From contig JADZBA010000319.1 of NCBI GenBank assembly GCA_020852355.1, positions 10,513 to 74,512 of the forward strand: DNA of 64,000 bases. Direction: 5' to 3'. Position 1 is the first letter of the stretch. Each line of letters opens with the position of its first letter. Below are positions 617 through 30,113 of the stretch, one piece after another. Origin of the DNA: Alphaproteobacteria bacterium. GTDB taxonomy: Bacteria > Pseudomonadota > Alphaproteobacteria > ATCC43930 > Allostellaceae. Made by a program: the position numbers and the translations under genes. The notes under the pieces are model-generated. The model searched no databases and was not told the DNA's origin. It saw only the letters and a list, made by a program, of their open reading frames with translations.

Positions 617-638
617 TGCATACTGTATGCAGAATGAT
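617..638. promoter_or_regulatory. Regulon operator, site A: perfect palindrome TGCATACTGTATGCA (617-631) overlapping a second register TGTATGCAGAATGAT (624-638)
   Basis: Seven-bp perfect inverted arms around a central T. It lies in the divergent intergenic region between the MFS gene (start 576, minus) and the Rieske alpha gene (start 768). The same motif recurs at eight other intergenic sites. Confidence 0.6.
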
Positions 639-733
639 TTGCGGTCTTAACGCCGAAATCGGCCGCTGTCGATATCGCAATGAGGCGCCCGCGACGCCTG
701 AGCCATCTTGACCCGGGTCCGATAGCCGCGTAC

Positions 734-748
734 TGCATGCGGTATACA
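734..748. promoter_or_regulatory. Regulon operator, site B: TGCATGCGGTATACA
   Basis: Matches the palindrome TGCATAC-N-GTATGCA at 12 of 14 positions. It lies 20 nt upstream of the Rieske alpha start codon and is nearly identical to site G (16451-16465). Confidence 0.55.
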
Positions 749-767
749 TTGCGATTGGGGGCTGCGG

Positions 768-2000
768 ATGAGCGTCGTCTGGCAAAACAATGCCTTGCAA
801 CTGGATTCGCGCCGCGTCATCGACCGGAAGATCTATGTCGAGAACCGCATCTACGATGCGGAAATCAGCCGGATTTTCGCCAGGACCTGGCAGTGGGTCG
901 GCCACGACACCGAACTTCCCGACTTCGGCGATTACCTCACCGCCACTGTCGCCGGGCGCGCCGTCGTCATCGCCCGCGGCGAGAACGACGCGATAGCCGC
1001 CTTCTACAACACCTGCACCCATCGCGGCGCCATCCTCGCGCCGCATCGCCGCGGCAAGAGCGACGGCGGCTTCACCTGCCTCTATCACGCGTGGTGCTTC
1101 GACACGACGGGCAAGCTGACCGCCGTGCCCCTGCCGCAGGCCTACCCCGAGAACCTCACCAGGAACGCCTGCTACGACATCCCCAAGGTCCGCTGCGAGC
1201 AGTTCAACGGCCACATCTTCGTCTGCCTGGATGCCGAAGCGCCGCCGCTGATGGAATTCCTCGGCCCGGTCGCGCCCCACATCGCCGAAGCCACCGGCGA
1301 CGGCGTGGCGCTGGGCCGCGTACGCTGGACGCTCGAAGGCAACTGGAAGCTCTGGCACGAGAACTTCCGCGACAACTACCATCCGATGTTCGCGCACCAG
1401 ATCCTCGGCCAGAACTATACGGGCGTGAAGATCGAGGGCGAGAATTACGATCTCGGCGCCGGGCACAGCCTGCTGACCTTCCCCTCGCAGGGCAATCCCA
1501 AGCAGATCATGCAGACCATGTCGCGCATGTCGGGCCGCAAGCTGCCGGAGCGTCCGAACATCCTCGGCCGGCGCACCACCGACGAGCCGCAGCGCACGCG
1601 CCACAACATTCTCGCCTGCTTCCCCAATCTCGATCTCCAGTACACCAGCAACACGGCTGCCAGCATGGTGCTCCAGACGGTGCAGCCGGCCGGCGTCGAC
1701 AAGGCCTATGTCGAGATCGTCGCCTTCGGCCGCAAGAGCGACACGCCGGAAATGCGCCAGCATCGCCTCGACACCGCGCTGGATGCGCAGACCGCCGCCG
1801 GCAAGATCAGCGGCGACGACAACGAGGCGGCGCGCCGCTGCGCCGTCGGCTTCTCGACGATCGACGCCGTCCGCTGGTCCAACATGGACCGCGGCCAGGA
1901 GCCGGGCAGCGTCGGCGCGAAGAACGACGAATACTCGCTGCGCGGTTTCTACGACGTCTACAAGGATTACATGGCCGACGCGTTGGCCGAAGTGGCGTGA
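768..2000 (+). CDS. Aromatic ring-hydroxylating dioxygenase, large (alpha) subunit, Rieske [2Fe-2S] type
   Basis: 410 aa. Rieske motif CTHRG...CLYHAW. Mononuclear iron motif NFRDNYHPMFAH (D-x2-H-x4-H). Followed directly by a beta subunit gene. Confidence 0.9.
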   Translation: MSVVWQNNALQLDSRRVIDRKIYVENRIYDAEISRIFARTWQWVGHDTELPDFGDYLTATVAGRAVVIARGENDAIAAFYNTCTHRGAILAPHRRGKSDGGFTCLYHAWCFDTTGKLTAVPLPQAYPENLTRNACYDIPKVRCEQFNGHIFVCLDAEAPPLMEFLGPVAPHIAEATGDGVALGRVRWTLEGNWKLWHENFRDNYHPMFAHQILGQNYTGVKIEGENYDLGAGHSLLTFPSQGNPKQIMQTMSRMSGRKLPERPNILGRRTTDEPQRTRHNILACFPNLDLQYTSNTAASMVLQTVQPAGVDKAYVEIVAFGRKSDTPEMRQHRLDTALDAQTAAGKISGDDNEAARRCAVGFSTIDAVRWSNMDRGQEPGSVGAKNDEYSLRGFYDVYKDYMADALAEVA

Positions 2001-2029
2001 TCGCCGCTCGTTAGGGTTTGGAGAACGCC

Positions 2030-2542
2030 ATGTCCGTTAGTCAGAACGTTGCCCAGGCCGCTGCGCCTGCCAACGAATACGCGATCGAGAAGGAAATCGT
2101 CGCGCTCATCCATCGCGTGGCCCGCTACTCGGATGAAAAGAAGTTCCTCGAATGGATGGACCTCTTCGCCGAGAACGCCGTCTATGGCGGCATCACCAGC
2201 GAGAATTACGGCGAGACCGGCCTCTATCTCTTCCGCGACAAGGGCAAGGGTGCGCTGCATGAGCGCGTCGCCTTCTTGAAGGGCCTGTGGCAGGTGCCGC
2301 GCGGCAAGACGCTGCATCTCATCACCAATATCGAGATCGAGATCGATCCCTCTGGCCTGGCGGCCTCGGCGAACAGCTATTTCCTCATGACGCGCACCGG
2401 CGAGATGGAGCATTCCAAGCTCCACGCCTGCGGGCGCTATTTCGACAAATTCGTTTTTGTGGATGGCGCCTGGCTGGTCGGCGAGCGTACGGTCGTCGTC
2501 GACAGCAACATGCTGCCGGGCGAGTTCACCGATCTTCTGTAA
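2030..2542 (+). CDS. Aromatic ring-hydroxylating dioxygenase, small (beta) subunit (NTF2/SnoaL-like fold)
   Basis: About 170 aa with beta-subunit-like sequence (EKEIVALIHRVARYSDEKKFLEWMDLFAENAVY). I prefer the ATG at 2030, which has GGAG 6 nt upstream, over the TTG at 2018 used in the ORF track. Confidence 0.8.
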   Translation: MSVSQNVAQAAAPANEYAIEKEIVALIHRVARYSDEKKFLEWMDLFAENAVYGGITSENYGETGLYLFRDKGKGALHERVAFLKGLWQVPRGKTLHLITNIEIEIDPSGLAASANSYFLMTRTGEMEHSKLHACGRYFDKFVFVDGAWLVGERTVVVDSNMLPGEFTDLL

Positions 2543-2584
2543 GGATCGGGCGCCGCCGGCGGCGCTCGCATAGGGAGGCCACGC

Positions 2585-3364
2585 GTGGGCACCAGGATTG
2601 AGGAGGCCGCCGGTCTCCTGCGGCAGGCCTATGGCGGCACGACCATCCCGCCGATGCGTGACCTCGTCGGCCCGAACGACGCCGATGCCGCCTATGACAT
2701 CCAGGCCTTCAACACGCGCCACTGGCTGGCCGCTGGGCGCCGCGTCGTCGGCCGCAAGATCGGCCTGACGGCGGAAGCGGTGCAGAAGCAGCTCGGCGTC
2801 GACCAGCCCGATTTCGGCGTCCTCTTCGCCGACATGCAGGTCGCCGACGGCGGCAAGCTCTCGCCCGCCAAGACCATCCAGGCCAAGGCCGAAGGCGAGG
2901 TCGCCCTCGTCATGGGCCGCCCGCTCGCCAAGCCTGACGCGACGCCCGAAGACGTCCTCGCCGCCGCAGAGTGCGCCGTCGCCGCGATCGAGATCGTCGA
3001 CAGCCGCATCGCCGACTGGAAGATCACCTTCGCCGACACGGTGGCCGACAACGGCTCGTCGGCCTTCTTCGTGCTCGGCGGCGCGCGCAAGCCCCTTCAG
3101 GGCCTCGATCTGCGCACCTGCGGCATGGCGCTGGAGGTGAACGGCAAGGTCGTCTCGCTGGGCGCCGGCGTCGCCGCGCTCGGCCATCCGCTGAACGCCG
3201 CGGCGTGGCTCGCCCGCACGCTCGCGCAGCGTGGCGAGCCGCTCCAGGCGGGTGATGTCGTGCTCACCGGCGCGCTCGGCCCGATGGTGACCCTCGTGCC
3301 GGGCGACCGGGTGAAGGTCGAGATCGGCGGCCTCGGCGCAGCCGGCTTTACATTCGCGGAATGA
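2585..3364 (+). CDS. mhpD: 2-keto-4-pentenoate (2-oxopent-4-enoate) hydratase
   Basis: 259 aa, GTG start preceded by GGGAGG. The sequence resembles the MhpD/BphH/XylJ family ([28 protein letters not shown]...). It is the first gene of the conserved hydratase / dehydrogenase / aldolase triad. Confidence 0.85.
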
Positions 3365-4317
3365 AGGCCGCCATGGCTGGGAAGACCAGGGTTGCGATCA
3401 TCGGCACGGGCAATATCGGCACCGACCTGATGATCAAGGTGATGCGCCTCTCCGAGGTGCTGGAGATGGGCGCCTTCGTCGGCATCGATCCGGAGTCGGA
3501 CGGCCTCGCGCGCGCCAGGCGCATGGGCGTCCCGGTCACCGCAGAGGGCCTCGACGGCCTCGTCGCCATGCCGGAATTCGCCGGCATCGACATCGTCTTC
3601 GACGCGACCTCGGCCGGCGCGCATGCCCGCCACGACGCCGTGCTGCGCAAGCACGGCAAGCGCGTCATCGACCTCACCCCCGCCGCCATCGGCCCCTACA
3701 CCATCCCGCCGGTCAACGGCGACGCGCATCTCGATGCGCCGAACGTCAACATGGTCACCTGCGGCGGCCAGGCGACGATCCCCATCGTTGCCGCGATCGG
3801 CCGCGTCGCGCCGGTGCACTATGCCGAGATCGTCGCCTCCATCGCCTCGAAGTCGGCCGGCCCCGGCACGCGCGCCAATATCGACGAGTTCACGGAAACC
3901 ACATCCCGCGCCATCGAAAGCGTCGGCGGCGCGACGCGCGGCAAGGCGATCATCGTGCTCAACCCCGCCGAGCCGCCGATGATCATGCGCGATACCGTGT
4001 TCTGTCTCACCGGCGACGCCGATCCCGATGCGATAACCCAGTCGGTCGAGGCGATGGTGGCCGAGGTGCAGTCCTATGTCCCCGGCTACCGCCTGAAGCA
4101 GAAGGTTCAGTTCGAGCGCATCGGCAGCAACCGCCCCTTGCGCATCCCCGAAATGAACGCCGAGTTCACCGGCCTGAAAGTCAGCGTCTTCCTCGAGGTC
4201 GAGGGCGCCGCGCATTACCTGCCCGCCTATGCCGGCAATCTCGACATCATGACCTCCGCCGCCCTCCTGACCGCCGAGAAGATCGCGCGCCGCACCCAGC
4301 GGAGCGCAGCGGCATGA
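3361..4317 (+). CDS. mhpF: Acetaldehyde dehydrogenase (acetylating)
   Basis: 318 aa. N-terminal Rossmann motif [17 protein letters not shown] and overall MhpF/DmpF/BphJ resemblance. ATGA overlap with the upstream stop codon. Confidence 0.92.
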
Positions 4318-5342
4318 GCTTCGATCCCAAACGGCAGAAGATCTACGTCCAGGACGTCACGCTGCGCGACGGCATGCACGCCATCCGCCACCAATACGGA
4401 CTCGATCACGTCAAGGCGATCGCCAGGGCACTCGACGACGCCAGGGTCGATGCCATCGAGATCGCCCATGGCGACGGCCTCGCCGGCTCGTCCTTCAACT
4501 ACGGCTTCGGCGCGCACACCGACTGGGACTGGATCGCCGCCGTCGGCGAGACGCTGAAGCACGCCAGGCTGACGACGCTGCTCCTCCCTGGCATCGGCAC
4601 GGTCCACGACCTCAAGCACGCCTACGAGATCGGCGTGCGTTCGGTCCGTGTCGCCACCCATTGCACCGAGGCCGATGTCTCCAGGCAGCATATCGAGTTC
4701 GCGCGCTCCATCGGTATGGACGTCGCCGGCTTCCTGATGATGAGCCACATGAACCCGCCCGAGAAGCTGGCGGAGCAGGCCAGGCTGATGGAGTCCTACG
4801 GCGCGCATTGCGTCTACGTGACCGACAGCGGCGGCCGGCTGACGATGGACGACGTCGCCGCGCGCTTCCAGGCCTATGACCGCGTGCTGAAGCCGGAGAC
4901 CGAGCGCGGCATCCACGCCCACCACAATCTCTCGCTCGGCGTCGCGAATTCCGTGCTCGCCGTGCAGAACGGCGCCGTCCGCGTCGACGCCAGCCTCGCC
5001 GGCATGGGGGCAGGGGCGGGCAATGCGCCCCTCGAAGTCTTCATCGCCGCGGCCGACCTCTATGGCTGGAACCACGGCTGCGATCTCTTCAAGCTCATGG
5101 ACGCCGCCGAAGATCTCGTCCGCCCGCTCCAGGATCGCCCGGTCCGCGTCGACCGCGAGACGCTTACCATCGGCTATGCCGGCGTCTATTCCAGCTTCCT
5201 GCGTCACGCGGAAAAGGCGGCGAGCGAATACGGCCTCGACACCCGCTCGATCCTCGTCGAACTCGGCAGGCGCAAGATGGTCGGCGGCCAGGAAGACATG
5301 ATCGTCGACGTCGCGCTCGATCTGGTGAAGCAGAAAGCATGA
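4314..5342 (+). CDS. mhpE: 4-hydroxy-2-oxovalerate aldolase
   Basis: 342 aa. The N-terminus [20 protein letters not shown] is typical of MhpE/DmpG/BphI. ATGA overlap with mhpF. Confidence 0.92.
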
Positions 5343-6355
5343 TCCCCAAGACAATGCGTGCGGTGCGGCTCGACGAAGTCGGACCGCCGGAGAATCTGAA
5401 GATCGTCGAGATGCCGGTGCCCCAGATCGGTCCGGACGACATCCTCATCCGCGTCGAGATGGCCGGCCTCATCTACGGCGACGCCGAGGCGCGGCGCGGC
5501 ACCTATTTCTCGGAAACCAAGCTGCCCTGGTTCCCCGGCCGCGAGGCCGCCGGCCACATCGCCGCGGTCGGCGATAACGTCACGGCGTGGAAGCCGGGCG
5601 ACCGCGTGATGGCGCTGATTCTCTCGAACGGCTGCTGCGCCGACTATGTGAAAGCCTCGACGAAGCCGCAGGTGCTGCCCAACGGCTATCGCATCCCGCC
5701 GGCCGACATCATCGCCGTGCCGCCCGAAGTCGCCTTCGCCAACGCGCTCGTCTATCTCGTCAATTTCCGCCTCGCCCATCTCCTGTTCCACGGCTCCAGC
5801 CGCGTCGTGAAGGGCGAGACCATCGTGATCCAGGGCGCCAGCGGCGGCATGGGCTCCATGATCGCCCAGCTCGCCCACGCCCAAGGCTGCACGATCATCG
5901 GCACCTGCCGCCGTCCCATCGAGGAAGAATTCTGCCGCAGGATCGGCATCGGCCATGTCGTCAACGTCAGCCGCACCGACTACGTCGCCGCCGTGCGCGA
6001 CCTCACCGACGGCAAGGGCGTGCGTGTCGTCTTCAACGGCGTCGGCGGCGACACCATCCAGCGCGACGCCGAGATCGTTCAGCCCTTCGGCGAGATCCAG
6101 GCCTATGGCTATGTCGCCGGCAAGAAGCCGCTCGACCTCTTCGGCGTGAAGCACTGCATCGCCTTCAAGACCTTCTCGGCCGATGATTTCTTCTCCACGC
6201 CCATGTTCCCCGCCGCCACCGCCGCGATGCACGACTGGCTCAAGACCGGCCCGCTGCTCTCCGCCGATCCGATCCTTCCGCTGGAACAGGCCGCCGAAGC
6301 CAACCGCCTCCTCGACCGCGGCGACGTCATCGGCAAGGTCGCGCTGAAGACCTGA
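5339..6355 (+). CDS. MDR-superfamily NAD(P)H:quinone oxidoreductase / zinc-type alcohol dehydrogenase-like protein
   Basis: 338 aa with a GroES-like N-terminus ([39 protein letters not shown]) and nucleotide-binding motif [20 protein letters not shown]-coupled to the aldolase gene. Confidence 0.8.
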
Positions 6356-6358: not shown

Positions 6359-7522
6359 TTAGTCCTTCGGCAGAACGCGTTGGCCTGCCGCTGCCCTCTC
6401 ATGCACGATGTCATAAGGGTCGCCGGCGCGGACATCATTGACGCGCGCGCGTCTGTAGGCATCGAGCAGCGGCTCGGCAGCGACATAATATCGTCCCCGT
6501 TTTTCGCCGACCGGCTTCAGAAGGCCGGCGTCGCACAGGCGGCGCAGGTCGCGGCTTGCGACGACATCGGAAACCGCGTTGTCCTTCTGATATTGGCCGG
6601 CCCTTACCTTGAAGCCGAAGGCCGCATCCACGAGGGAAATCAGCGTCCGCTCGTGCAGTTTCTCGCGCCGGGCTGTTTTTTCGATATCTGCGAATACGCG
6701 CGCCATGGCGCGGCTGCGCTGAACGAGCGTGGCAGCCTGCTGATAATGCGCGCGGAGGCAAAACCGCACCCAGGGCAGCGCGTCGTTCTGTGGGCTCCAC
6801 TTGCCCTGACCGGTCTTTGAAAGAATGTCGTAGTAGGACTGCGTGTTGCGTCCGAGCCATTCTTCGATGCTGCAAAAGACGGGGCTCAGGAGACCGTCGC
6901 GAGCCATGACCAGAGTTTGGATGGCGCGCGCCATACGGCCGTTTCCGTCTCTGAAGGGGTGGATCATCGTCAGGTTGAGATGAGCCATCGCCCCGCGAAC
7001 CAAAGGATTGGTTCCCGGCGTCAACGAGGCGATCAGGTCGTTCATCAAGGCCGGAACCTGCTCGGCTTCCGGGCCTTCGTACACGGTTTCCCCGTCGTGA
7101 TCCCGAACGACGTAAATCGGCCCGGGACGCCATTGCCCGGGCATCTTGGTCAGGTCGTAGGAAAGCATCATGAAATGCAGGCTTTTCACGACCTGGGCAT
7201 TCAATTCGAAATACGGATCGTCGTGGGTTTGCAGGATATACGTCATGGCGTTCCGATAGCCGGCCAGGGCGCGAAACGTCTCTTCGTCGACCGTTTCCGG
7301 TCTCTCGTCGTCGATGATCGCCGCGGCGTCGCTGAGAGACGCGTTGATTCCTTCGATGCTGTTCGACCCCTGAACGGCGCGCGCGAATGTGCTGCGCCGA
7401 AGCGATCCCGTCCAGCGATTGGGAGCCTGCGCAACCGTATAGCGCAGGACGTCTCTCGCCTCCTGGATGAGCGCCATCACGGCTTCATCGACCCGCTCCA
7501 GAGGGGGCGTCGTGTAGATCAT
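6359..7522 (-). CDS. Fic-family protein (class II, auto-inhibited AMPylase type) with a C-terminal winged-helix-like region
   Basis: 387 aa. Canonical Fic motif HPFRDGNGRMAR. N-terminal inhibitory-helix motif SNSIEG, matching [ST]xxxE[GN]. Two 60-nt lines hand-counted at 48-50% G+C, visibly lower than the neighbouring genes. Confidence 0.9.
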   Translation of the reverse strand: MIYTTPPLERVDEAVMALIQEARDVLRYTVAQAPNRWTGSLRRSTFARAVQGSNSIEGINASLSDAAAIIDDERPETVDEETFRALAGYRNAMTYILQTHDDPYFELNAQVVKSLHFMMLSYDLTKMPGQWRPGPIYVVRDHDGETVYEGPEAEQVPALMNDLIASLTPGTNPLVRGAMAHLNLTMIHPFRDGNGRMARAIQTLVMARDGLLSPVFCSIEEWLGRNTQSYYDILSKTGQGKWSPQNDALPWVRFCLRAHYQQAATLVQRSRAMARVFADIEKTARREKLHERTLISLVDAAFGFKVRAGQYQKDNAVSDVVASRDLRRLCDAGLLKPVGEKRGRYYVAAEPLLDAYRRARVNDVRAGDPYDIVHERAAAGQRVLPKD

Positions 7523-7665: not shown

Positions 7666-7700
7666 TTGACGTCCTCCAGTACGTCGGCATACTGCATACA
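7666..7700 (+). promoter_or_regulatory. Putative sigma70-type promoter (TTGACG-N17-ATACTG) overlapped by regulon operator site C (7686-7700, reverse complement TGTATGCAGTATGCC)
   Basis: The -35-like hexamer is at 7666-7671 and the -10-like hexamer at 7689-7694. The operator matches the palindrome at 11 of 14 positions and lies 20 nt upstream of the hydrolase start codon. Confidence 0.45.
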
Positions 7701-10854: not shown

Positions 10855-10861
10855 AGCCGGC

Positions 10862-11021
10862 CGTAAGCTCGTTCAGCCACAATCCTTTTTGCCATGGTGA
10901 GGTGCGACCCCGGACTTGACCCGGGGGAGCCTCGAACCACGCACAGCTCTTCAGGCGCGCAGGATAGAAACTGCGTGGTTCGAGGCTCGACGGCTCGCGC
11001 CGTCGCGCACCCTGGCACAAG
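10862..11021. repeat. REP/RIME-like intergenic palindromic element, family 1, full copy
   Basis: Nested inverted repeats: TTGCCATGGTGAGGTGCGAC / GTCGCGCACCCTGGCACAA and GAGCCTCGAACCACGCAC / CTGCGTGGTTCGAGGCTC. The left half recurs at 29109-29190. Confidence 0.7.
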
Positions 11022-11038
11022 GGGATTGGGCGCGAAGC

Positions 11039-11383: not shown

Positions 11384-11384
11384 G

Positions 11385-20336: not shown

Positions 20337-20358
20337 CGGGCGGCATCAAGGATCGATC

Positions 20359-21987: not shown

Positions 21988-22018
21988 TTTCACGAAACGC
22001 CGCAGGGGGGAGCGCGCC

Positions 22019-22959: not shown

Positions 22960-22974
22960 TGTATGCAGAATGCA
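22960..22974. promoter_or_regulatory. Regulon operator, site H: TGTATGCAGAATGCA
   Basis: Matches the palindrome at 11 of 14 positions. It lies 43 nt upstream of the TonB-dependent receptor start codon. A CATAAT -10-like hexamer follows it. Confidence 0.5.
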
Positions 22975-23016: not shown

Positions 23017-25326
23017 ATGAGCAGGTACGGAAGACTAGGCGGTAAGACGCGTCTGATGCTGAGCAGCGGTCTCGGCCTCATGGCGGTGGCATTGGCAGGC
23101 GTCGCGGCGGCGCAGGGTACGCCCGCCCGCACGGCGGGTGACGGGTCCGAGGAAGTGGTCGTCACCGCGACCCGCCGCGAAGCCCAGGTCCAGGACATTC
23201 CGCTTTCGGTGAGCGCCTATACCGGGCAGGCGCTGGAGGCGCGCAACGTCACGTCGTTCCAGGATCTCACGAAGATCGACCCGACCTTCGCGACCCAGAA
23301 TTTCGGTGCCGCGTTCAACCAGTACATCATCCGCGGCGTCGCCTCGCAGATCGGCCAGACGGTCGGCGTCTATCTCGACGACGCACCCATCCTCGGCGGC
23401 TCGCTCACGGAAGACGGCGGCGACGGCAAGCCGGGCCTTCGCCTGCACGACATCCAGCGCGTCGAAATCCTGCGCGGCCCGCAGGGCACGCTGTTCGGGT
23501 CCAGCTCGATGAGCGGCACGCTGCGGGTGATCGAGAACCGTCCCGACTTCAAGAATGTCGAGGGCAGTTGGTCGGCCTCCATGTCGACGACCGACGGCGG
23601 CAACAATCTCTACATGGGCGACGTGGCGGTGAACCTGCCGGTCGTGAAGGACAAGCTGGCGATCCGCACCGTGCTCTGGGGCGAATCCGGCGGCGGCTTC
23701 ATCGATCAGGAAACCGCGAATTTCGACTACAAGAACGCCAACGACGTCACCACCAAGGGCGGCCGCATCTCGATCGGCGCCGAGGTGACCCCCGAATTCC
23801 ACCTGCTGGGCATGTACACCCACCAGGAGATCGACGTCGACGGCGTGCAGTCCTGGGCGCTCGGCCAGCCGGACTATGTCAGCAATCTGCGCGCGACCGA
23901 GCCCTACAGCGACGACTACGACCTCGGCTATGTCGAAGCGACCTACGACGCGTCTTTCGGCACGTTCCTCTTCGCCTATTCGAACACCCAGCAATGGGTC
24001 AGCCGCACCGCCGACACCTCGCAGACCTGCAACAATTTCGGCATCCCCGGCGCCTGCGCGATCACCCAGGCCCAGAATTTCGATGCGGATACCTTGGAGG
24101 GCCGCTTCAGCTCGTCCTTCGACGGGCCGTTCCAAGTCGTGGTCGGCGCCTATTACGAGAACAGCACCGTGTCGAACGAGACGACGGTGAAGCTCGCCAA
24201 CAGCGCCAACGGCGAAGCGCCCTGCGTGACCTATCGCGAGTGCACCGACGGCAATTTCTCGCGCAGCATCGTGTTCTCGACCGTCGACAACATCGACGTC
24301 GAGCAATACGCGCTCTACGCCCAGGGCGACTACGAGATCACCAGTCAGCTCACCGCCACCGTCGGCATCCGCTACTACTCCGCCGACATCAAGGACTACG
24401 GCACCATCCAGCAGGACGTGTTCGCGACGAACCCGGTCTGCGCCGAGCACTACAACGTGCCGCGTCCGGTCTGCGGCTTCGCCTTGGGTGATATCACGGT
24501 GCCCTACGCCCGCGAATCCGGCGACAGCTCGGAATCGAAGACGACGTTCAACTTCTCGCTGCTCTACGAGATGAACGACGACGTCAGCTTCTACGCGCGC
24601 GCCGCTTCGGGCTTCCGCATCGGCGGCGTCAACAATATCGCCCTGCTCGCGGGCTCGGGCGGCGTCGATGTGCCCGACTCCTACGGCCCCGATACGCTGT
24701 GGTCCTACGAACTCGGCACCAAGGCCTATTTCTGGGAGCGCAAGGGCAATATCGACCTGGCGGTGTATTACATCGACTGGACCGACCAGCAGCTCGGCTC
24801 GACCGATCCGTCGGGTGCGTTCGACTTCATCATCAACGGCGGCAAGACGGCGGTCTACGGCGTCGAGCTGCAAGGCACCATCATGCCGGTCGACGGCCTG
24901 ACGCTGGGCGGCGGCATCACCTTCACCGATGCCACCCTGGCGGAAGACCTGCCTGCGGTCTCGACCTCGGTCGGCGACGACGGTGACCGCATTCCGGGTG
25001 TCGCCAAGTGGCGCGGTTCGGTGACCGGCGAATACGAGTTCGGTCTCACCGAAACGACGCAGGGCTACGTCCAGGCTTCGGCGAACTTCCGCAGCAAGAC
25101 CGCCACGGCCTTCAACGACACCGACCCCAACTACCGCAAGCTCGACTCCTACTGGCTGTGGGATGCCGCGGTCGGCGTGCGCTACGAACAGTGGGACGCC
25201 CAGCTCTTCTTCCAGAACATCGGCAACGAGGCGGCGCAGCTCGCGCTGAACGTCGGCAACGACGGCCTGCGCGTCTACTCGCCGCGTCCGTTCACGGTGG
25301 GCCTCCGGATTTCGAGCAGCTTCTGA
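23017..25326 (+). CDS. TonB-dependent outer-membrane receptor
   Basis: 769 aa. Signal peptide (LMAVALAGVAAAQG). Plug-region TonB-box-like EVVVTATRRE. Long beta-barrel region rich in Y/G/D/N. C-terminal aromatic residue (...RISSSF). Confidence 0.9.
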   Translation: MSRYGRLGGKTRLMLSSGLGLMAVALAGVAAAQGTPARTAGDGSEEVVVTATRREAQVQDIPLSVSAYTGQALEARNVTSFQDLTKIDPTFATQNFGAAFNQYIIRGVASQIGQTVGVYLDDAPILGGSLTEDGGDGKPGLRLHDIQRVEILRGPQGTLFGSSSMSGTLRVIENRPDFKNVEGSWSASMSTTDGGNNLYMGDVAVNLPVVKDKLAIRTVLWGESGGGFIDQETANFDYKNANDVTTKGGRISIGAEVTPEFHLLGMYTHQEIDVDGVQSWALGQPDYVSNLRATEPYSDDYDLGYVEATYDASFGTFLFAYSNTQQWVSRTADTSQTCNNFGIPGACAITQAQNFDADTLEGRFSSSFDGPFQVVVGAYYENSTVSNETTVKLANSANGEAPCVTYRECTDGNFSRSIVFSTVDNIDVEQYALYAQGDYEITSQLTATVGIRYYSADIKDYGTIQQDVFATNPVCAEHYNVPRPVCGFALGDITVPYARESGDSSESKTTFNFSLLYEMNDDVSFYARAASGFRIGGVNNIALLAGSGGVDVPDSYGPDTLWSYELGTKAYFWERKGNIDLAVYYIDWTDQQLGSTDPSGAFDFIINGGKTAVYGVELQGTIMPVDGLTLGGGITFTDATLAEDLPAVSTSVGDDGDRIPGVAKWRGSVTGEYEFGLTETTQGYVQASANFRSKTATAFNDTDPNYRKLDSYWLWDAAVGVRYEQWDAQLFFQNIGNEAAQLALNVGNDGLRVYSPRPFTVGLRISSSF

Positions 25327-25344
25327 TCCGGGTTTGATGCAAAG

Positions 25345-25383
25345 AAGGGGCTGCGCTGCGATGCGGCGCGGCCCCTTTCGTTT
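25345..25383 (+). terminator. Rho-independent terminator-like hairpin after the TonB-dependent receptor gene
   Basis: AAGGGGCTGCGC (25345-25356) pairs with GCGCGGCCCCTT (25366-25377), including one G-U pair. TCGTTT follows. Confidence 0.55.
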
Positions 25384-25392
25384 GAGGCGACC

Positions 25393-27198
25393 ATGGCGGC
25401 ACAAGGCTTCACCACGCGCCCGACCATCCGCGGCACCTTCGGTGTCGTCGCGGCGACCCACTGGATCGCCGCGCAGGTCGGCATGCGCATGCTGGAGCGC
25501 GGCGGCAATGCCTTCGATGCCGCGGTCGCCGCCGGGCTGGTGGAACAGATCGTCGAGCCGCATCTCTGCGGCCCTGCCGGCGAAGTCCCCATAATCTTCC
25601 ACCATGCCGCCAGCGGCGCGACGCGCGTCCTCTGCGGCCAGGGCGTCGCGCCGCAGGCCGCCACCATCGAAGCCTTCGCCGCGCAGGGCCTCGACATGGT
25701 GCCCGGCGCGGGCATCATTTCGGCCGTCGTCCCCGGCGCCTTCGACGCCTGGATGACCCTCCTGCGCGACTATGGTTCGCTCCCCCTCGCCGACATCTTG
25801 GAGCCCGCCATCGGCTATGCGGAGAACGGCCACCCGATCCTCCCCGGCGCGGCGCGGGCGATCGCCGAGGTCGAACAGACCTTCCGCACCGAATGGACGA
25901 CCTCCTGCGACATCTGGCTCCCCGGCAACGCGCCGCCGCAGCCGCAGTCGCTCTTCCGCAACCCCGTCCTCGCCGCCACCTACAAGCGCATCCTCGCCGA
26001 AGCCGAAAGCGCCGGCGGCGACCGCGTGCGGCAGATCGAACGGGCGCGCGCCGCCTGGTCGCGCGGCTTCGTCGCAGAGGCCGTCGACACATTCGTCCGC
26101 GCCGCGCCCTCGATGGATTCCAGCGGCGAACGTCGCCGCGGGCTTCTCACCGGCGACGACATGGCGCGCTGGTCCGCGACCTACGAAGACCCCGCGCACC
26201 ATGACTACAAGGGCTGGACGATCTGCAAGACCGGCCCGTGGGGGCAGGGGCCGGCGCTGCTCCAGGCCCTCAGCCTCCTCTCCGGCTTCGACCTCGACCG
26301 CCTCCCGCCGGACTCGCCCGACTTCATCCACCTCGTGCTGGAATCGATCGGCCTCGCCTTCGCGGATCGCGAGACTTATTACGGCGATCCGGACTTCGTC
26401 GAGGTCCCGCTAGACCGCCTGCTCGGCGAAGATTATGCGCGCGCCCGCCGCGCCGAGATCGCGCCGGACGCCTCACGCGAATTCCGGCCCGGCCGCCTCG
26501 CCGGCTTCGAGGCGCAGGTCGACCGCGCCCGGTCGCTCCTCCGCATCGCCAGGCCCGAAGCGCGAACCGGCATCGGCGTCGGTGAGCCCACCATGGCGCA
26601 TCTCCGTCCGAAGCCGCGCGACACCACGCATCTCGACGTGATCGACCGCCACGGCAACATGGTCAGCGCGACACCCTCCGGCGGCTGGCCGCAATCCTCG
26701 CCGACCATTCCCGGGCTCGGCTTCGCGCTGAACACGCGCCTCCAGATGTTCTGGCTGACGCAGGGTGTGCCCTCCAGCCTCGCGCCCGGCAAGCGCCCGC
26801 GCACCACGCTCACCCCGACGCTCGCCTTCGATCACGGCCGGCCCGCGCTCGTCTGCGGCAGCCCCGGCGGCGACCAGCAGGACCAGTGGCAGCTCTTGCT
26901 GCTCCTCCGCCGCATCCATCACGGCATGAGCCTTCAGCAGGCCATCGACGCCCCGATGTTCCACAGCCTGCACTTCCCGTCATCTTTCTATCCGCGCGAA
27001 GCGATCCTCGGCGCCAGCGTCCTCGAAGAAGGCCACGCGCCGGAGACCATCGCAGCCCTGCGCGCCCGCGGCCACGACATCACGATCGCACCCGCCTGGT
27101 CCGTCGGCCGCCTCACCGCCGCCGAACGCGACGCCACCGGCACCCTTAACGCCGCCGCCTCCCCCCGACTGATGCAGGCCTACGCCGTGGGGCGGTAG
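25393..27198 (+). CDS. Gamma-glutamyltransferase-family Ntn hydrolase with no evident signal peptide
   Basis: 601 aa. GGNAFDAAVAAG near the N-terminus. Autoprocessing/nucleophile region RDTTHLDVIDRHGNMVSATPSGG. GSPGGDQ near the C-terminus. The N-terminus MAAQGFTTRPTIRG is not signal-like. Confidence 0.85.
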   Translation: MAAQGFTTRPTIRGTFGVVAATHWIAAQVGMRMLERGGNAFDAAVAAGLVEQIVEPHLCGPAGEVPIIFHHAASGATRVLCGQGVAPQAATIEAFAAQGLDMVPGAGIISAVVPGAFDAWMTLLRDYGSLPLADILEPAIGYAENGHPILPGAARAIAEVEQTFRTEWTTSCDIWLPGNAPPQPQSLFRNPVLAATYKRILAEAESAGGDRVRQIERARAAWSRGFVAEAVDTFVRAAPSMDSSGERRRGLLTGDDMARWSATYEDPAHHDYKGWTICKTGPWGQGPALLQALSLLSGFDLDRLPPDSPDFIHLVLESIGLAFADRETYYGDPDFVEVPLDRLLGEDYARARRAEIAPDASREFRPGRLAGFEAQVDRARSLLRIARPEARTGIGVGEPTMAHLRPKPRDTTHLDVIDRHGNMVSATPSGGWPQSSPTIPGLGFALNTRLQMFWLTQGVPSSLAPGKRPRTTLTPTLAFDHGRPALVCGSPGGDQQDQWQLLLLLRRIHHGMSLQQAIDAPMFHSLHFPSSFYPREAILGASVLEEGHAPETIAALRARGHDITIAPAWSVGRLTAAERDATGTLNAAASPRLMQAYAVGR

Positions 27199-27254: not shown

Positions 27255-27779
27255 TCACCCCAGATGCCGGTCCCGCTGCTCGAACAGCTTCTGGTCCGCG
27301 AACCCTGCGGTCTCCGGCTTCCCGCGCCCCAGCATCACCTGGAGATAGCACGGCTCTTCGGTGTCGTTGACATAGCCGTGGATCACCCCCGCCGGGCAGC
27401 AGATCATCTCCCACGGCTCCAGCACCTTCGAAACGCGCCGCCCGCTCTCGTCTTCCACGAAGGCCGTCAGCCGGCCCTGGAGCACGAAGAACACCTCCTC
27501 CACCTCGTGCGTGTGGGGCGCGTTTCCCTGGCCCGGCGGCACCAGCATGATCGACAGCGTGAACGCCCCGGCCGGAATGGCGCTCGCATCGCCATGCTTG
27601 CCCGAAGCCCCCGCGCCGATGAAGCGGTGCTGCGCCCGGCGATTGCCCTCGATGCTGGCATCGGCGAAGGCGTTCCAGTCGGGCACCTTGTCTTGGAAGC
27701 GCCCGACATAGCGCGCCATGATCTCTTCCAGCGAAACGCCTTCAAGCTCGGCGGGGCGGGCGTGGCGGGCGGTGTTCAT
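27255..27779 (-). CDS. Cupin-domain protein
   Basis: 174 aa. Cupin metal motifs GQGNAPHTHEVEEVFFVLQG and PAGVIHGYVN. Confidence 0.75.
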   Translation of the reverse strand: MNTARHARPAELEGVSLEEIMARYVGRFQDKVPDWNAFADASIEGNRRAQHRFIGAGASGKHGDASAIPAGAFTLSIMLVPPGQGNAPHTHEVEEVFFVLQGRLTAFVEDESGRRVSKVLEPWEMICCPAGVIHGYVNDTEEPCYLQVMLGRGKPETAGFADQKLFEQRDRHLG

Positions 27780-27791
27780 GTCTCTCTCCGG

Positions 27792-29012
27792 TCAGGCGAC
27801 GGCGCGGGAATCGTGGAAACTGTCGATCAGGCAGGCGCGGCGGATGAAGGCGTCGTGCCGCTCGGGATCGGCGCCGGTCGCGCGGATATCGTCCAGCTTG
27901 CGCTTGCGCTCGGCGGGGTCGGTCTCGCCCAGCGTCTGCTTGTTCTGGATCGACTGCGCCTGGACATAGTTGAGCTGCGCCACCCGCATCTGCCGCGTAT
28001 ACTGGTCCAGCAGCGCCTCATGCGCCGCGCCCCTGGCGATCGCCTCCAGCCGTTCGGCCAGGTTCATCGCGTCGTGGATGCCGCCATTCATGCCCATCCC
28101 GCCGACCGGATTGTTCACATGCGCGGCGTCGCCGGCCAGCAGCACGCGGCCTTTGTTGAACGTCGCCGCGACCCGCTGGTGCACCTTGTAGAGCGCCACC
28201 GTCGCGATCCGGTAGGGCCCGGGCTTCGGACAGAAGAGTTGCAGCCGCTGCTCGATCTGCTCCGGCGACAGCAGATATTCGTCGGTCTGCTCGGGCAGCG
28301 TCGGGCTCACCGCGCGCCACATGCCCTCGCCGTCCGGCCCGCGTGCCTTGAACAGGTTCAGCCACTGGTCCGGATCGGCGAAATAATTGCGATTGCTCAA
28401 TTCGCTGCGCAGCGACTGGAAGTCGAAGATCGTGTCGATCTTCAGGAACCGCTCCGGCCAGGTGAAGCCGTCGAACGCGATGTCCGCAAGGCGCCGTATC
28501 GTGCTGCGCCCGCCGTCGCAGCCGACCAGGAAATCCGCCGCGATCGTCTCGCGTTCGCCGTTCGGCAGCTCCACTTCGGCGCGCACCTTGTCCGCATCCT
28601 GCGTCAGCCCGACGACACGGGTGCTCATGCGCAGCTCGGCGTCCGCGTCGTCCGACAGCAGCTTCACCACGGTCTGCGCGATCTTGTACTGCTCCCATTG
28701 CAGCACATAGGCGTGGCGCGGCGGCGTCTTCATCGCGCGGATGTCGAAGCGCGCGATCAATTCGCCCGACGGCCGGTCGAGATAGTTGAAGACCGGCGAG
28801 ACCAGCCCCTGCTCCAGCCCGAATTCCAGCAGGCCCAGCTCCTCCAGCATCGCGACGGTCGGCGGATGGCACGATGCGGCGCGGCACTCGATCTCGGGCT
28901 GCTCCAGCGCCTCGACCACGATCACCTTCAGCCCGCGCCGCCGCAGCGCCAGCGCCATCACCGCCCCCACCGGCCCCGCGCCGACGACGATGACGGTTGT
29001 CGAAAGGGTCAT
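27792..29012 (-). CDS. FAD-dependent aromatic-ring monooxygenase (group A flavoprotein hydroxylase)
   Basis: 406 aa. GxGxxG motif VIVVGAGPVGAVMALAL, DG motif LVGCDGGRSTIR, and GD motif LAGDAAHVNNPVGGMGMNGGIHDAMNL. Confidence 0.88.
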   Translation of the reverse strand: MTLSTTVIVVGAGPVGAVMALALRRRGLKVIVVEALEQPEIECRAASCHPPTVAMLEELGLLEFGLEQGLVSPVFNYLDRPSGELIARFDIRAMKTPPRHAYVLQWEQYKIAQTVVKLLSDDADAELRMSTRVVGLTQDADKVRAEVELPNGERETIAADFLVGCDGGRSTIRRLADIAFDGFTWPERFLKIDTIFDFQSLRSELSNRNYFADPDQWLNLFKARGPDGEGMWRAVSPTLPEQTDEYLLSPEQIEQRLQLFCPKPGPYRIATVALYKVHQRVAATFNKGRVLLAGDAAHVNNPVGGMGMNGGIHDAMNLAERLEAIARGAAHEALLDQYTRQMRVAQLNYVQAQSIQNKQTLGETDPAERKRKLDDIRATGADPERHDAFIRRACLIDSFHDSRAVA

Positions 29013-29108
29013 GCGTAGGCCTTTGCGTTGAACTTGACACTGTCATCCTCCGACGGCCCGCCGGGCCGATCGGGGAATCCACGCCTGAGCGCAGCCAGCC
29101 GCTCACCA

Positions 29109-29190
29109 CGGTAAGTCTTCTGAGTTCCAAAATTCGTTGCCATGGTGAGGTGCACGGCGGCGAACGCCGCCGGGCCTCGAACCACGCACA
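29109..29190. repeat. REP/RIME-like element, family 1, half copy
   Basis: GGTAAGTCTTCTGAGTTCCAAAATTCGTTGCCATGGTGAGGTGC...GCCTCGAACCACGCACA aligns with the left half of the element at 10862-10945. Confidence 0.65.
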
Positions 29191-29205
29191 TCGCTTCCAC
29201 CGCGC

Positions 29206-29997
29206 TCACAGCAGATCCAGCACGGGAATGCCCTGGCCCAGCCGCGCGCATTGCAGCAGGCTGTAGGCGGTCAGCAGCGATGTCTTCGGATTGGCCGGCG
29301 CCGCATGGGCGAAGGTCTCGTAGCGCATGCGGCCGAACGCCCCCGCCGCCTCGATCACCCCCAGCGGATCGCTCACCTTGCGCGACGACACCAGCACGGC
29401 GCGCGTGTCGTCGAGCCCCAGCGCGCAGAGGCCCACCGCCACCGCGACATTGGCGTTCTTCGGAAACCGCGCCGCCGCCTCGCGCGCCGTGCCGTCGAAC
29501 AGAACCTGTTCCTCGGCCGGGTTGTCGTAGTCGATCAGGCCTTCCGCCGGCGTGCCGCGCCAGGCGTGCGGCGGCTTGATCGAGGTGTAGCTGGCCGACG
29601 CAAGCCCGCCGAGCCGCGCCGCCAGCAAGCCGTCGAGCCCGCCGACCGCGCCGGGCGCCAGCAGCAGCCGCCCGCCGCCTTGCGCCGCTGCGCTGAGCTC
29701 CGCTGCGACCCTGGGGTCCGACAGGGCGCCGATCGACGTCACCACCAGGTCCAGCCCCGCCCGCAGGACCGCCGCGCCGTGCTCGCGCACCGCCGCATGC
29801 CCCGCGCATTCCAGCACCGTCCTGATGCCGTTGCCGCACAGCGCATCGGCGCTATGAACGGCGGCGAACCGCTCCGCATTCCGGCCTTCGCGCACCAGCA
29901 CCGCCTTCAGCGCGCCGGTCTCGCCCAGATGCGTCAGGACCCGGCCGATTTCGGTGCCGATGGCGCCATAGCCGATCAGGCCGAACGGGGCCGGCAT
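29206..29997 (-). CDS. Aspartate dehydrogenase-like (NadX/DUF108 family) NAD(P)-dependent dehydrogenase, paralogue 2
   Basis: 263 aa from MPAPFGLIGYGAIGTEIG. Its C-terminal half is like that of the 11488-12309 protein (FPKNANVAVAVGLCALGLDDTRAVLVS...). The upstream extension to 30108 in the ORF track is rejected. Confidence 0.75.
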   Translation of the reverse strand: MPAPFGLIGYGAIGTEIGRVLTHLGETGALKAVLVREGRNAERFAAVHSADALCGNGIRTVLECAGHAAVREHGAAVLRAGLDLVVTSIGALSDPRVAAELSAAAQGGGRLLLAPGAVGGLDGLLAARLGGLASASYTSIKPPHAWRGTPAEGLIDYDNPAEEQVLFDGTAREAAARFPKNANVAVAVGLCALGLDDTRAVLVSSRKVSDPLGVIEAAGAFGRMRYETFAHAAPANPKTSLLTAYSLLQCARLGQGIPVLDLL

Positions 29998-30016
29998 GGT
30001 CGTCACGCCTGGTTCT

Positions 30017-30031
30017 TGTATGCAGAATACA
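30017..30031. promoter_or_regulatory. Regulon operator, site I: TGTATGCAGAATACA, with an extra half-site TGCATAC at 30039-30045
   Basis: Matches the palindrome at 10 of 14 positions. It lies in the divergent region between the aspartate-dehydrogenase-like gene (start 29997) and the TauD-family gene (start 30114). Confidence 0.5.
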
Positions 30032-30113
30032 TTGTCCTTGCATACAACCGCGCGCCTATGGGAAAAGCAAGCCGCCGGATGACGGCGATCGAGCCGAGAG
30101 AGCCCCACCTCGC

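Follow-up and report, generated by a model that had tools for sequence, protein, structure and literature searches.

Nine 15-bp sites in seven promoter regions of a cluster for aromatic-compound breakdown and uptake are probable operators of a local VanR-group GntR/FCD regulator

The window (the whole 64-kb stretch of DNA analysed here) carries in its first 31 kb a cluster of genes for the breakdown and uptake of aromatic compounds, in which a GntR/FCD gene is the sole regulator gene. The gene labels of the original prediction agreed with Pfam for the MFS, Rieske alpha/beta, hydrolase/LigAB/reductase, Rieske ferredoxin, Asp-DH-like, GntR/FCD, DAO oxidoreductase, LigXa-type Rieske, TBDR and TauD genes. 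The gene units and the operators assigned to them are as follows.

1-576, minus strand: unit 1, MFS transporter, cut by the window edge; operator 1
768-6355, plus strand: unit 1, Rieske alpha/beta - hydratase - acetaldehyde DH - aldolase - Zn-ADH operon; operator 2
7720-10854, plus strand: units 2-3, hydrolase - LigA-like - LigB - ferredoxin reductase; operator 3
11039-11383, minus strand: units 2-3, Rieske ferredoxin; operator 4
11488-13033, plus strand: units 2-3, Asp-DH-like - FAA hydrolase; operator 4
13037-13702, minus strand: GntR-family regulator, 221 aa, PF00392 and PF07729, the proposed repressor
13833-15041, plus strand: units 4-5, DAO-type FAD oxidoreductase; operators 5-7 (shared by units 4-5)
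15043-16308, minus strand: units 4-5, MFS; operators 5-7
16531-22843, plus strand: units 4-5, LigXa-type Rieske - LigB-like - aldehyde DH - ThDP enzyme - alpha/beta hydrolase; operators 5-7
23017-27198, plus strand: units 6-7, TonB-dependent receptor - gamma-glutamyltranspeptidase; operators 8 and 9 (shared by units 6-7)
27255-29997, minus strand: units 6-7, Asp-DH-like - FAD monooxygenase - cupin; operators 8 and 9
30114-30920, plus strand: units 6-7, TauD-family dioxygenase; operators 8 and 9

All nine copies of the predicted 15-mer were recovered in position and strand. They are listed here with their matrix scores and their distances to the neighboring start codons, the nearest of which lies 2-66 bp downstream of each site.

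617-631: operator 1, TGCATACTGTATGCA, a perfect consensus palindrome as predicted, 26.0 bits; MFS transporter ATG (576, minus strand) 41 bp downstream
734-748: operator 2, TGCATGCGGTATACA, 22.9 bits; Rieske alpha-subunit ATG (768) at 20 bp
7686-7700: operator 3, 21.0 bits; meta-cleavage-type hydrolase ATG (7720) at 20 bp
11385-11399: operator 4, in the Rieske-ferredoxin / Asp-DH-like divergon, 23.8 bits; ferredoxin ATG (11383) at 2 bp, Asp-DH-like ATG (11488) at 89 bp
13787-13801: operator 5, in the GntR / DAO-oxidoreductase divergon, 19.6 bits, the weakest; DAO ATG at 32 bp, GntR ATG at 85 bp
16340-16354: operator 6, 23.8 bits; second MFS transporter ATG (16308, minus strand) 32 bp downstream
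16451-16465: operator 7, 21.7 bits; LigXa-type Rieske oxygenase ATG (16531) at 66 bp
22960-22974: operator 8, 23.5 bits; TonB-dependent receptor ATG (23017) at 43 bp
30017-30031: operator 9, in the Asp-DH-like / TauD divergon, 24.7 bits; Asp-DH-like ATG (29997) at 20 bp, TauD ATG (30114) at 83 bp
30039-30046: an extra single 8-mer box, TGCATACA, starting 8 bp past operator 9

The operator consensus is TGCATAC-N-GTATGCA, and the predicted match of the copies to the ideal palindrome, at 10-14 of 14 positions, was reproduced against operator 1. The degenerate consensus TGYATRCNGWATRCA gave six exact matches, covering five sites (0.00 expected from 100 dinucleotide-preserving shuffles), and 12 matches with at most one mismatch, covering eight sites (0.07 expected in shuffles); the ninth site (13787) departs from it by two mismatches. 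When the 64-kb window was scanned with a symmetrised weight matrix, built from the same nine sites that it then scores, these sites (19.6-26.0 bits) stood alone, the runner-up at 14.0 bits being an overlap of operator 1 shifted by 7 bp, and the top score unrelated to any operator being 9.7 bits at 17080, in coding DNA. Past 31 kb, where the prediction had placed no copies, the scan gave at most 8.2 bits everywhere. The intergenic location claimed for all nine copies was borne out by the gene calls (GC3 plus Pfam), and with an intergenic share of 2019 of 32784 bp (6.2%) over the first 33 kb, the naive chance of nine intergenic sites out of nine is ~1e-11. Within 1-31 kb, all six divergent intergenic regions are occupied by one or two sites each, as is the gap preceding the TonB-dependent receptor gene, and the convergent gaps are free of operators.

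The half-site TGCATAC includes the hexamer GYATRC, which becomes GT-N2-AC with T for Y and A for R, and each 15-mer consists of two fused GYATRC boxes with their centres 7 bp apart. Such half-sites, of the palindromic GT-N(2-3)-AC type expected for the FadR subfamily and its VanR group, occur both in the regulator's own divergon and at the other six promoter regions. Single GYATRC hexamers occur in coding DNA at about chance level (31 copies), and the double box occurs at promoters only; outside the nine operators, the intergenic DNA of the whole window holds just two TGYATRCA boxes, at 30039-30046 and 61403-61410. Both hexamers were present in 60 of the 60 collected sites, which were chosen with the full 15-bp matrix, and a third hexamer at the 7-bp period was sporadic, without overall enrichment.

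The regulator encoded at 13037-13702 matches PF00392, the GntR-type wHTH domain, over residues 15-67 with E = 2.2e-20 and 72.5 bits (cut-off 27), and PF07729, the all-helical FCD effector domain, over residues 87-208 with E = 3.2e-14 and 53.8 bits (cut-off 24.3). Its AlphaFold2 model (pLDDT 86.9) has three helices and a beta-hairpin wing at the N-terminus followed by an FCD domain of six helices (residues 80-217), where six FCD helices define the VanR group and seven the FadR group. The best Foldseek matches of the model are VanR-group proteins, namely McbR (4p9f, TM 0.83), AlkR (9isw), 3ihu, 2hs5 and Atu1419, and the family and the modeled fold thus place the regulator among the FCD-type proteins, in the FadR subfamily and its VanR group. 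By manual alignment to the FadR numbering, Glu39, Arg50, Thr51, Arg54 and Gly72 correspond to Glu34, Arg45, Thr46, Arg49 and Gly66 of FadR/Atu1419; these contact residues are fixed or almost fixed across 28 homologues, among which the HTH region as a whole shows almost no variation. The half-site hexamer of the operators is the established recognition sequence of FCD regulators that share these DNA-contact residues, which supports the regulon claim.

The motif is also found at orthologous promoters in seven syntenic loci (L086, L087, L090 and L093-L096) whose GntR proteins are 58-69% identical to ours, with 3-12 sites per locus that reach 16.5 bits or more. These sites occupy promoters that correspond to those of the window (the LigXa-Rieske/MFS, GntR and ferredoxin/Asp-DH divergons, the hydrolase-LigAB operon and the Rieske alpha gene), and GntR/FCD genes are the only regulators in these 17-21 kb stretches, which supports the predicted seven-promoter regulon. 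A site in the regulator's own divergent promoter is kept in L086, L087, L090, L093 and L095, and where a divergon holds a pair of sites, the two are separated by 63-157 bp without fixed phasing, a spacing that speaks neither for nor against looping. Among 80 distant FCD loci, picked solely by the same recognition helix, the 15-mer was enriched 17-fold in the 400 bp preceding the regulator gene, with examples in Cupriavidus, Nisaea, Collinsella and an Actinomycetota MAG, and the 8-mer box was enriched 12-fold (19 of 80 loci). In an unbiased metagenome scan with the perfect palindrome, the hits were mostly low-GC chance matches, and a related GntR was found in one of 120.

On this comparative evidence, the gene at 13037-13702 quite probably encodes the VanR-group GntR/FCD repressor for which the nine 15-mers serve as operators; it is the candidate that the original prediction had favored as the cluster regulator with a site in its own promoter region. 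Operator 5 is presumed to be autoregulatory because it lies inside the GntR / DAO-oxidoreductase divergon. It is unlikely that the sites are genuine operators of another regulator, whether this is the window's second GntR/FCD protein (60514-61170), a paralogue from another part of the genome or a member of another family. The second GntR has the same SRTPVREA recognition helix and could cross-bind the operators, and a TGCATGCA box is present in its own promoter region; however, its gene is 47 kb away, its product is only 29% identical, and no 15-mer is nearby, as is also the case for the three TetR genes and the MarR gene past 34 kb. Paralogous GntR genes are often found inside the clusters of relatives (51% identical, with a near-identical HTH), and the motif alone therefore cannot tell paralogues apart, but it is the 13037-13702 gene whose own-promoter site keeps its position in relatives. 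The syntenic loci have no conserved TetR, IclR, LysR or MarR gene, and a 7-1-7 site of GT-N2-AC boxes is of the GntR/FadR-subfamily type. Such a site is not of the LexA, Fur or CRP/FNR type.

The positions of the sites indicate that the GntR/FCD protein would act as a repressor, since the sites lie 2-66 bp from start codons or adjoin TTGACA. The only sigma-70-like promoter obtained from a promoter scan, TTGACG-16-CATACT, has its -10 element CATACT inside operator 3, and a TTGACA hexamer stops 2 bp short of operator 7. At 13 of the 60 collected sites, an exact TTGAC is part of a TTGACN hexamer that ends 1-2 bp before the operator, so that the operator would fill the spacer. E. coli-type promoters are recognisable at only three of the 12 gene/site pairs, and the operator/promoter overlap is therefore partly assumed. 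It is very unlikely that GntR instead serves as an activator or dual regulator at some promoters, like the BphR1/ORF0-type proteins of biphenyl clusters: GntR-family activators of bph operons have been described, and the divergon sites 83-98 bp from the TauD, GntR and Asp-DH-like ATGs could lie upstream of a -35 element, but the nearest genes start too close to the sites to fit a promoter in between, as an activator would require, the recognisable promoter elements put the operator on the -10 element or in the -35/-10 spacer, and Atu1419 and DipR, the closest characterised regulators by operator type, are repressors. A reading of the 15-mers as fortuitous matches, or as a small dispersed repeat, without a regulatory role is effectively refuted, even though the motif and intergenic DNA are both A+T-richer than the genome, by the absence of matches in shuffles, the matrix scan, the restriction of the double box to promoters, the flanks, which are unconserved past 3 nt and therefore not those of a mobile repeat, and the retention of sites at orthologous promoters although the regulators are only about 60% identical.

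For the GntR/FCD repressor, the actual binding, repression, stoichiometry and effector that we infer would combine as follows. Without effector, GntR would sit on the operators, which would overlap or abut the core promoters in seven promoter regions and thereby block RNA polymerase. This would silence the uptake genes (two MFS transporters and the TonB-dependent receptor), the catabolic genes (two Rieske-oxygenase/extradiol ring-cleavage modules with ferredoxin and reductase, and the lower meta-cleavage pathway), several accessory oxidoreductases and the gene of GntR itself. Upon entry of a pathway substrate or intermediate into the FCD domain, GntR would be released, and the whole cluster would be switched on together. 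The switch so proposed for the aromatic-compound breakdown and uptake genes is well supported and, as local gene switches go, ordinary.

Among known systems, Atu1419 of Agrobacterium fabrum (PDB 6z74, 6za3) is a VanR-group FCD repressor of its own gene and of catabolic genes for hydroxycinnamic acids, which are plant-derived aromatics; it binds a ATGTATACAT box with one dimer each, and its Arg45 contacts G3 of this box (PMC7797058). It shares with the window GntR the VanR-group fold of wHTH and six helices, the arginine (Arg50 in our protein) and the arrangement of two sites in a divergon. It is only ~22% identical, however, and forms a tetramer that loops single 10-bp boxes 109-190 bp apart, whereas the window has two boxes fused at 7 bp. 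It also has a His3/Asn zinc site, whereas in the 28-sequence alignment of the window clade no histidine other than H100 falls in a column that is invariant or at least 90% conserved, which would speak against a conserved His triad. A His3 + Asp/Asn metal site is found in several VanR members (Atu1419, TM0439, PS5454), and members of the group may lack it.

DipR of Alcaligenes faecalis JQ135, of the GntR/FadR subfamily, represses the dipicolinate cluster from six promoters, including its own, via GWATAC hexamers, and is released by the substrate (PMC11472048). DipR is a single FCD-type repressor that governs one catabolic cluster together with its own promoter, as the window GntR would, and the footprinted dipA site TTTGTATAAGGTATTCAATC agrees with the window consensus at 13 of 15 positions by manual count and can be read as two hexamers 7 bp apart. 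Its substrate and enzymes are different from those of the window, and its authors give the DipR unit as a single 6-bp palindrome, whereas both hexamers are kept in all of our 60 matrix-selected sites.

The E. coli FCD regulator NanR places several dimers closely and cooperatively on (GGTATA)3 tandem hexamers, and this cooperativity requires a 32-residue N-terminal extension (PMC8012715). A similar close packing of FCD dimers is likely on the window operators by analogy, with the differences that the NanR repeats are direct and non-palindromic, whereas the window boxes form a palindrome, and that the extension of about 32 residues is absent from the window GntR, whose helix 1 begins at residue 11 after ~10 residues in which, together with the start of the helix, V8, V9 and R13 are nearly invariant. 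The repeat spacing at the nanA operator is 8-9 bp. Because an Atu1419 dimer occupies one GTATAC box, the 15-mer may hold two dimers, and by this analogy each operator probably carries two side by side rather than one; a single symmetric complex on the 15-mer fits equally well, since the preferred half-site TGCATAC is not self-complementary. Thus, in the original proposal of one dimeric repressor, the local GntR/FCD repressor stands on comparative evidence and the single dimer does not.

With respect to the pathway, BphS, encoded locally, is described as repressing the bph operon, which specifies a Rieske dioxygenase, an extradiol dioxygenase and a hydrolase, and as having the meta-cleavage product for its inducer, and CarR is annotated as a GntR-family regulator of the car operon (PMC10282184, PMC2848856). 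The car cluster, with LigAB-type CarBaBb, the hydrolase CarC and a ferredoxin, resembles the window operon 7720-11383, but BphS and CarR govern one or two promoters, as against seven in the window. No close sequence relative was found among the PLSDB plasmids. The window regulator clade and its regulon do not appear in the comparative data set of Suvorova et al. 2015, as far as its supplement represents it (PMC4494728). That study gives TKGT/ACMA as the FadR-subfamily consensus, the GT-AC distance being 2 nt in several groups, predicts TGTATACA/TGCATACA sites for regulators with a GVSRTPVREAL helix, and describes divergon double sites, each beside its own operon, as well as common weaker extra boxes 7-12 nt off the site centre (PMC4494728). 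In the window, by comparison, the second box equals the first in strength, and the unit is therefore the symmetric 15-mer.

The nine 15-mers of the original prediction (starting at 617, 734, 7686, 11385, 13787, 16340, 16451, 22960 and 30017) were all confirmed in place, and all nine proved intergenic, as had been claimed, by gene calls made from third-position G+C and then checked against Pfam. By these calls the first 31 kb of the window are one catabolic and uptake cluster.

Genes of the first 31 kb (coordinates, strand, product)
1-576, minus: MFS transporter, cut by the window edge
768-6355, plus: Rieske alpha/beta, hydratase, acetaldehyde dehydrogenase, aldolase and Zn-ADH
6359-7522, minus: Fic-domain gene
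7720-10854, plus: meta-cleavage-type hydrolase, LigA-like, LigB and ferredoxin reductase
11039-11383, minus: Rieske ferredoxin
11488-13033, plus: Asp-dehydrogenase-like and FAA hydrolase
13037-13702, minus: GntR/FCD regulator
13833-15041, plus: DAO-type oxidoreductase
15043-16308, minus: second MFS transporter
16531-22843, plus: LigXa-type Rieske, LigB-like, aldehyde dehydrogenase, ThDP enzyme and hydrolase
23017-27198, plus: TonB-dependent receptor and gamma-glutamyltranspeptidase
27255-29997, minus: cupin, FAD monooxygenase and Asp-dehydrogenase-like
30114-30920, plus: TauD

The degenerate consensus TGYATRCNGWATRCA has six exact matches in the window, which cover five of the sites, and none in 100 dinucleotide-preserving shuffles; with at most one mismatch it has 12 matches covering eight sites, where 0.07 would be expected, and the ninth site (13787) carries two mismatches. 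A symmetrised weight matrix made from the nine window sites scored them at 19.6-26.0 bits. The next match (14.0 bits) is an overlap of site 1 shifted by 7 bp, and the best match unrelated to a site (9.7 bits) lies in a coding region. Beyond 31 kb, where no copy had been reported, no matrix match exceeds 8.2 bits, and the proposed matrix-scan check, here run on the 64-kb window, placed the sites in promoters and not in coding DNA. The window is 67.5% G+C, and intergenic DNA makes up 2019 bp (6.2%) of its first 32784 bp; within this part, 6/6 divergent intergenic regions have one or two sites, as does the 173-bp gap preceding the TonB-dependent receptor gene, and the convergent gaps have none. 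Of the 50 bare GYATRC hexamers in the window, 31 fall in coding DNA, about as many as chance would give, and 19 are intergenic; 18 of these 19 belong to the nine sites. The double-box arrangement is found at promoters only. Only two intergenic TGYATRCA boxes lie outside the nine sites in the window, at 61403-61410 and at 30039-30046, the latter a single 8-mer box, TGCATACA, 8 bp past operator 9 in the Asp-dehydrogenase-like/TauD divergon.

The GntR/FCD gene (13037-13702) is the sole regulator gene of the 31-kb cluster. The regulator genes beyond 34 kb, three of TetR type, one MarR and a second GntR/FCD, have no 15-mer nearby, and the second TonB-dependent receptor gene (48733-51048) is without a site. 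The exact regulator protein was found on short metagenome contigs only, and its homologues at 60-89% identity are mostly metagenomic, with some Caulobacteraceae MAGs; the HTH region is near-invariant in an alignment of 28 homologues, and among plasmids, searched for annotated homologues such as CarR, there was no match at E <= 1e-12. In seven independent syntenic loci (L086, L087, L090 and L093-L096), which have a regulator 58-69% identical to that of the window and no regulator genes other than GntR/FCD ones, the gene neighbourhood is kept, and the window matrix detects 3-12 sites (>=16.5 bits) in each locus of 17-21 kb. These sites lie at corresponding promoters, namely LigXa-type Rieske/MFS, upstream of the regulator and ferredoxin/Asp-dehydrogenase-like, and further upstream of the hydrolase-LigAB operon and of Rieske alpha. 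On the sequences compared, this conservation is a phylogenetic footprint over regulators that have diverged by 30-40%.

Could another regulator own the sites, either the second GntR (60514-61170) or an unlinked paralogue? [quoted passage not shown] Linkage, the autoregulatory site and conservation favour the product of 13037-13702 over other regulators; this rival is therefore disfavoured. The interpretation as one local GntR regulon is supported at the comparative-genomics level. The palindromic TGCATGCA box (61403-61410) lies between the second GntR/FCD gene (minus strand) and a family III CoA-transferase gene (61539-62753), and may be that GntR's own single-box operator. Most syntenic relatives carry a second, paralogous GntR/FCD gene (L090 15338-16018; L093 16813-17475; L095 15210-15878; L096 10689-11318; and the ends of L086 and L087). 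The L090 copy encodes a protein that shares 51% identity with the window regulator and has nearly the same HTH; no such paralogue is present within the 64 kb of the window. The paralogous GntRs could bind the same operators and sense different effectors.

The nearest gene start is 2-66 bp from each site. A single sigma-70-like promoter was found, TTGACG-16-CATACT, ahead of the hydrolase gene, and its -10 falls within operator 3; plausible -35/-10 elements were seen in 3/12 gene/site pairs, as judged by the E. coli consensus, which does not cover alphaproteobacterial promoters. When the window sites were pooled with those of the seven loci, exact TTGAC was found at 13/60 sites, operator 7 included, with the TTGACN hexamer ending 1-2 bp before the operator, which occupies the -35/-10 spacer of those promoters; about 0.1 such cases would be expected by chance (estimated from base composition). 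The alternative that the regulator activates rather than represses is disfavoured because the site positions are contrary to it and fit steric repression. In the divergons, the distance between paired sites ranges over 63-157 bp and shows no fixed phasing, in line with published site pairs, whose members each control their own operon. We also observed that the Rieske ferredoxin ATG lies 0-2 nt past an operator both in the window (11383-11399) and in several relatives (operators at L087 11584-11598, L093 13099-13113 and L096 12599-12613), an arrangement that would fit a leaderless ferredoxin mRNA with the -10 inside the operator. Most likely, then, the regulator is a repressor of all seven promoter regions and of its own gene, and it would be released by effector binding to its FCD domain; by analogy, the effector may be the substrate, as for DipR, or a meta-cleavage product, as for BphS (PMC10282184).

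From the 60 pooled sites, which were selected with the matrix and are thus biased in the core columns and unbiased in the flanks, TGCATAC emerges as the favoured half-site and TGCATAC-N-GTATGCA as the whole consensus, with G2, A4, T5 and C7 invariant or near-invariant. The flanks show A/T enrichment over 3 nt only and no extended repeat, and this, together with the absence of shuffle matches, excludes chance matches or a dispersed repeat. Each half-site contains the hexamer G-Y-A-T-R-C, which the literature places firmly with regulators of the GntR/FadR subfamily. The FadR-subfamily consensus is TKGT/ACMA, with a GT-AC distance of 2 nt in several groups and a recognition-helix Arg that reads the G, and for regulators with a GVSRTPVREAL helix, TGTATACA/TGCATACA sites have been predicted (Suvorova et al. 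supplementary tables, PMC4494728). In the window protein, the contact-residue equivalents are Glu39, Arg50, Thr51, Arg54 and Gly72 (manual alignment, FadR numbering). Its AlphaFold2 model (pLDDT 86.9) has a wHTH and six helices, the defining feature of the VanR group, and the best structural matches are McbR, AlkR, 3ihu, 2hs5 and Atu1419. Other operator types were rejected: the 7-1-7 geometry does not fit LexA (CTGT-N8-ACAG or GTTC-N7-GTTC), Fur, or CRP/FNR or NtcA sites (even-length 5-6-5 or GTA-N8-TAC), and none of the corresponding genes is nearby.

In the 15-mer, two boxes share the central base pair and their centres are separated by 7 bp; both boxes are present in 60/60 collected sites, which were selected with the full 15-bp matrix. 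Atu1419, a VanR-group FCD repressor, binds ATGTATACAT with one dimer per 10-bp box, and its Arg45 contacts G3, mutation of which abolishes binding (PMC7797058). NanR dimers are closely packed on (GGTATA)3, and NanR has a 32-residue N-terminal extension (PMC8012715) that the window protein lacks. Because one FCD dimer occupies each GTATAC box in Atu1419 and both boxes occur in all sites, the analogy suggests two dimers per operator, packed as tightly as those of NanR. The fused boxes are ~240 degrees apart round the helix, which may place two VanR-type dimers on different DNA faces, and in relatives with two paralogues, one dimer of each per operator might form a two-signal gate. To our knowledge, such close packing has not been structurally described for GntR/FCD proteins without the NanR extension. 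The 15-mer, not the half-site TGCATAC, is the true symmetry unit, since the half-site lacks self-complementarity; a single symmetric complex spanning the whole 15-mer is a plausible alternative to two dimers. We regard as tentative, and on balance doubtful, the joint reading of an obligate two-box fusion bound by two VanR-type dimers plus an uncharacterised aromatic pathway fed by the TonB receptor; if true, the regulon would define a pathway for an aromatic, possibly nitrogen-containing, compound in Caulobacteraceae-like soil bacteria. A third hexamer at the 7-bp period, suggested by shifted matrix matches at six window sites, is seen at sites 1 and 8, at the Nisaea site and in some metagenome matches, and was rejected as a general feature as G...C is not enriched at the expected flank columns of the 60 sites. 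Three GYATRC hexamers at a strict 7-bp period recur on contigs unrelated to each other, in a Nisaea MAG (L043 9857-9878) and in metagenomes (L104 7530-7551, L138 9176-9197 and L196 2589-2610); one example, TGCATACTGTATGCAGAATGCA, is almost identical to window 617-638, and a GntR relative was found nearby only in L043.

The profile search of genome contigs with the GntR alignment chose generic HTH peptides and yielded distant loci, not orthologues. In a test set of 80 distant GntR/FCD loci (26-45% identity) picked only by the peptide VSRTPVREA, the 400 bp ahead of the regulator gene hold the 15-mer (>=15 bits) at 17 times the density seen elsewhere, and the single 8-mer TGYATRCA, present in 19/80 loci, is 12-fold enriched. 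Near-perfect 15-mers lie upstream of regulators in Collinsella, an Actinomycetota MAG, a Cupriavidus and a Nisaea. The Cupriavidus regulator (45% identical) is encoded divergently from a ferredoxin reductase and a LigXa-type Rieske protein, and the Nisaea one (31% identical) next to a TRAP transporter and a PdxA-like gene. This enrichment implies that the box travels with the VSRTPVREA-type recognition helix across unrelated phyla and regulons, and the fused double box is, judging by these comparisons, one recurrent arrangement of the single box. A metagenome-contig scan for TGCATACNGTATGCA gave 120 matches, mostly on 30-50% GC contigs where chance matches dominate, with a related GntR at one of them.

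Further observations concern the cluster and the rest of the window. The Fic-domain gene (6359-7522, minus strand) lies in a lower-G+C stretch (0.60-0.64) between two Rieske/LigAB operons, a position held in syntenic relatives by a paralogous GntR or Zn-ADH gene, and looks like an insertion. ARAGORN called a 99-nt tRNA-Ser(GCU) at 29838-29936 (minus strand) inside the Asp-dehydrogenase-like CDS; Rfam at gathering score found no tRNA there, so the call is doubtful and probably a false positive, and an Rfam scan of the window returned no RNA family. The block at 34508-46400, with its own TetR regulators and no 15-mer, appears to be a separate CoA-dependent catabolic module, in which Pfam was used to check a TetR gene, a thiolase-like gene and an OYE-type flavin reductase carrying a fused FAD domain. 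Its SDRs, DUF35-like gene, acyl-CoA dehydrogenase, PhyH-like dioxygenases and CoA ligase are by-eye assignments only. The 1-kb stretch at 58001-59000 (52% G+C vs 67% for the window) has a sole, unconvincing ORF of 108 aa (58060-58386, minus strand) and is flanked by an acyl-CoA-dehydrogenase-like gene on one side and a GST-like gene on the other, both assigned by eye.

The new elements are the regulator clade, the conserved 15-bp double-box operator and the regulon, which joins several accessory enzymes to two ring-cleavage modules and three transporters, of which one is a TonB-dependent receptor. This regulon, clean and testable, belongs to a conserved cluster of genes that comprises two Rieske/extradiol modules, several nitrogen-related enzymes, a TonB-dependent receptor and two MFS transporters. 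In the curated family libraries searched the cluster is uncharacterised: among ten proteins including the regulator, only the Asp-dehydrogenase-like one reached the curated cut-off for an NCBIfam equivalog-level name. The host clade of the cluster is known almost only from metagenomes. The operator marks the cluster boundary, since the regulon ends at ~31 kb with the second TonB receptor (48.7 kb) outside, and it lets regulon members be predicted in related genomes; the repressor/operator pair could serve for inducer screening or as a biosensor part. Mechanistically, this is an ordinary local repressor system, and the points that merit experiment are the double-box stoichiometry and the pathway substrate. 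A GntR/FCD repressor with GTATAC-type boxes at several promoters of a catabolic cluster is of a known kind, represented by DipR, Atu1419, BphS and CarR. DipR represses six dipicolinate-cluster promoters, its own included, through GWATAC (PMC11472048), and by our count its footprinted dipA site, TTTGTATAAGGTATTCAATC, agrees with the present consensus at 13/15 positions.
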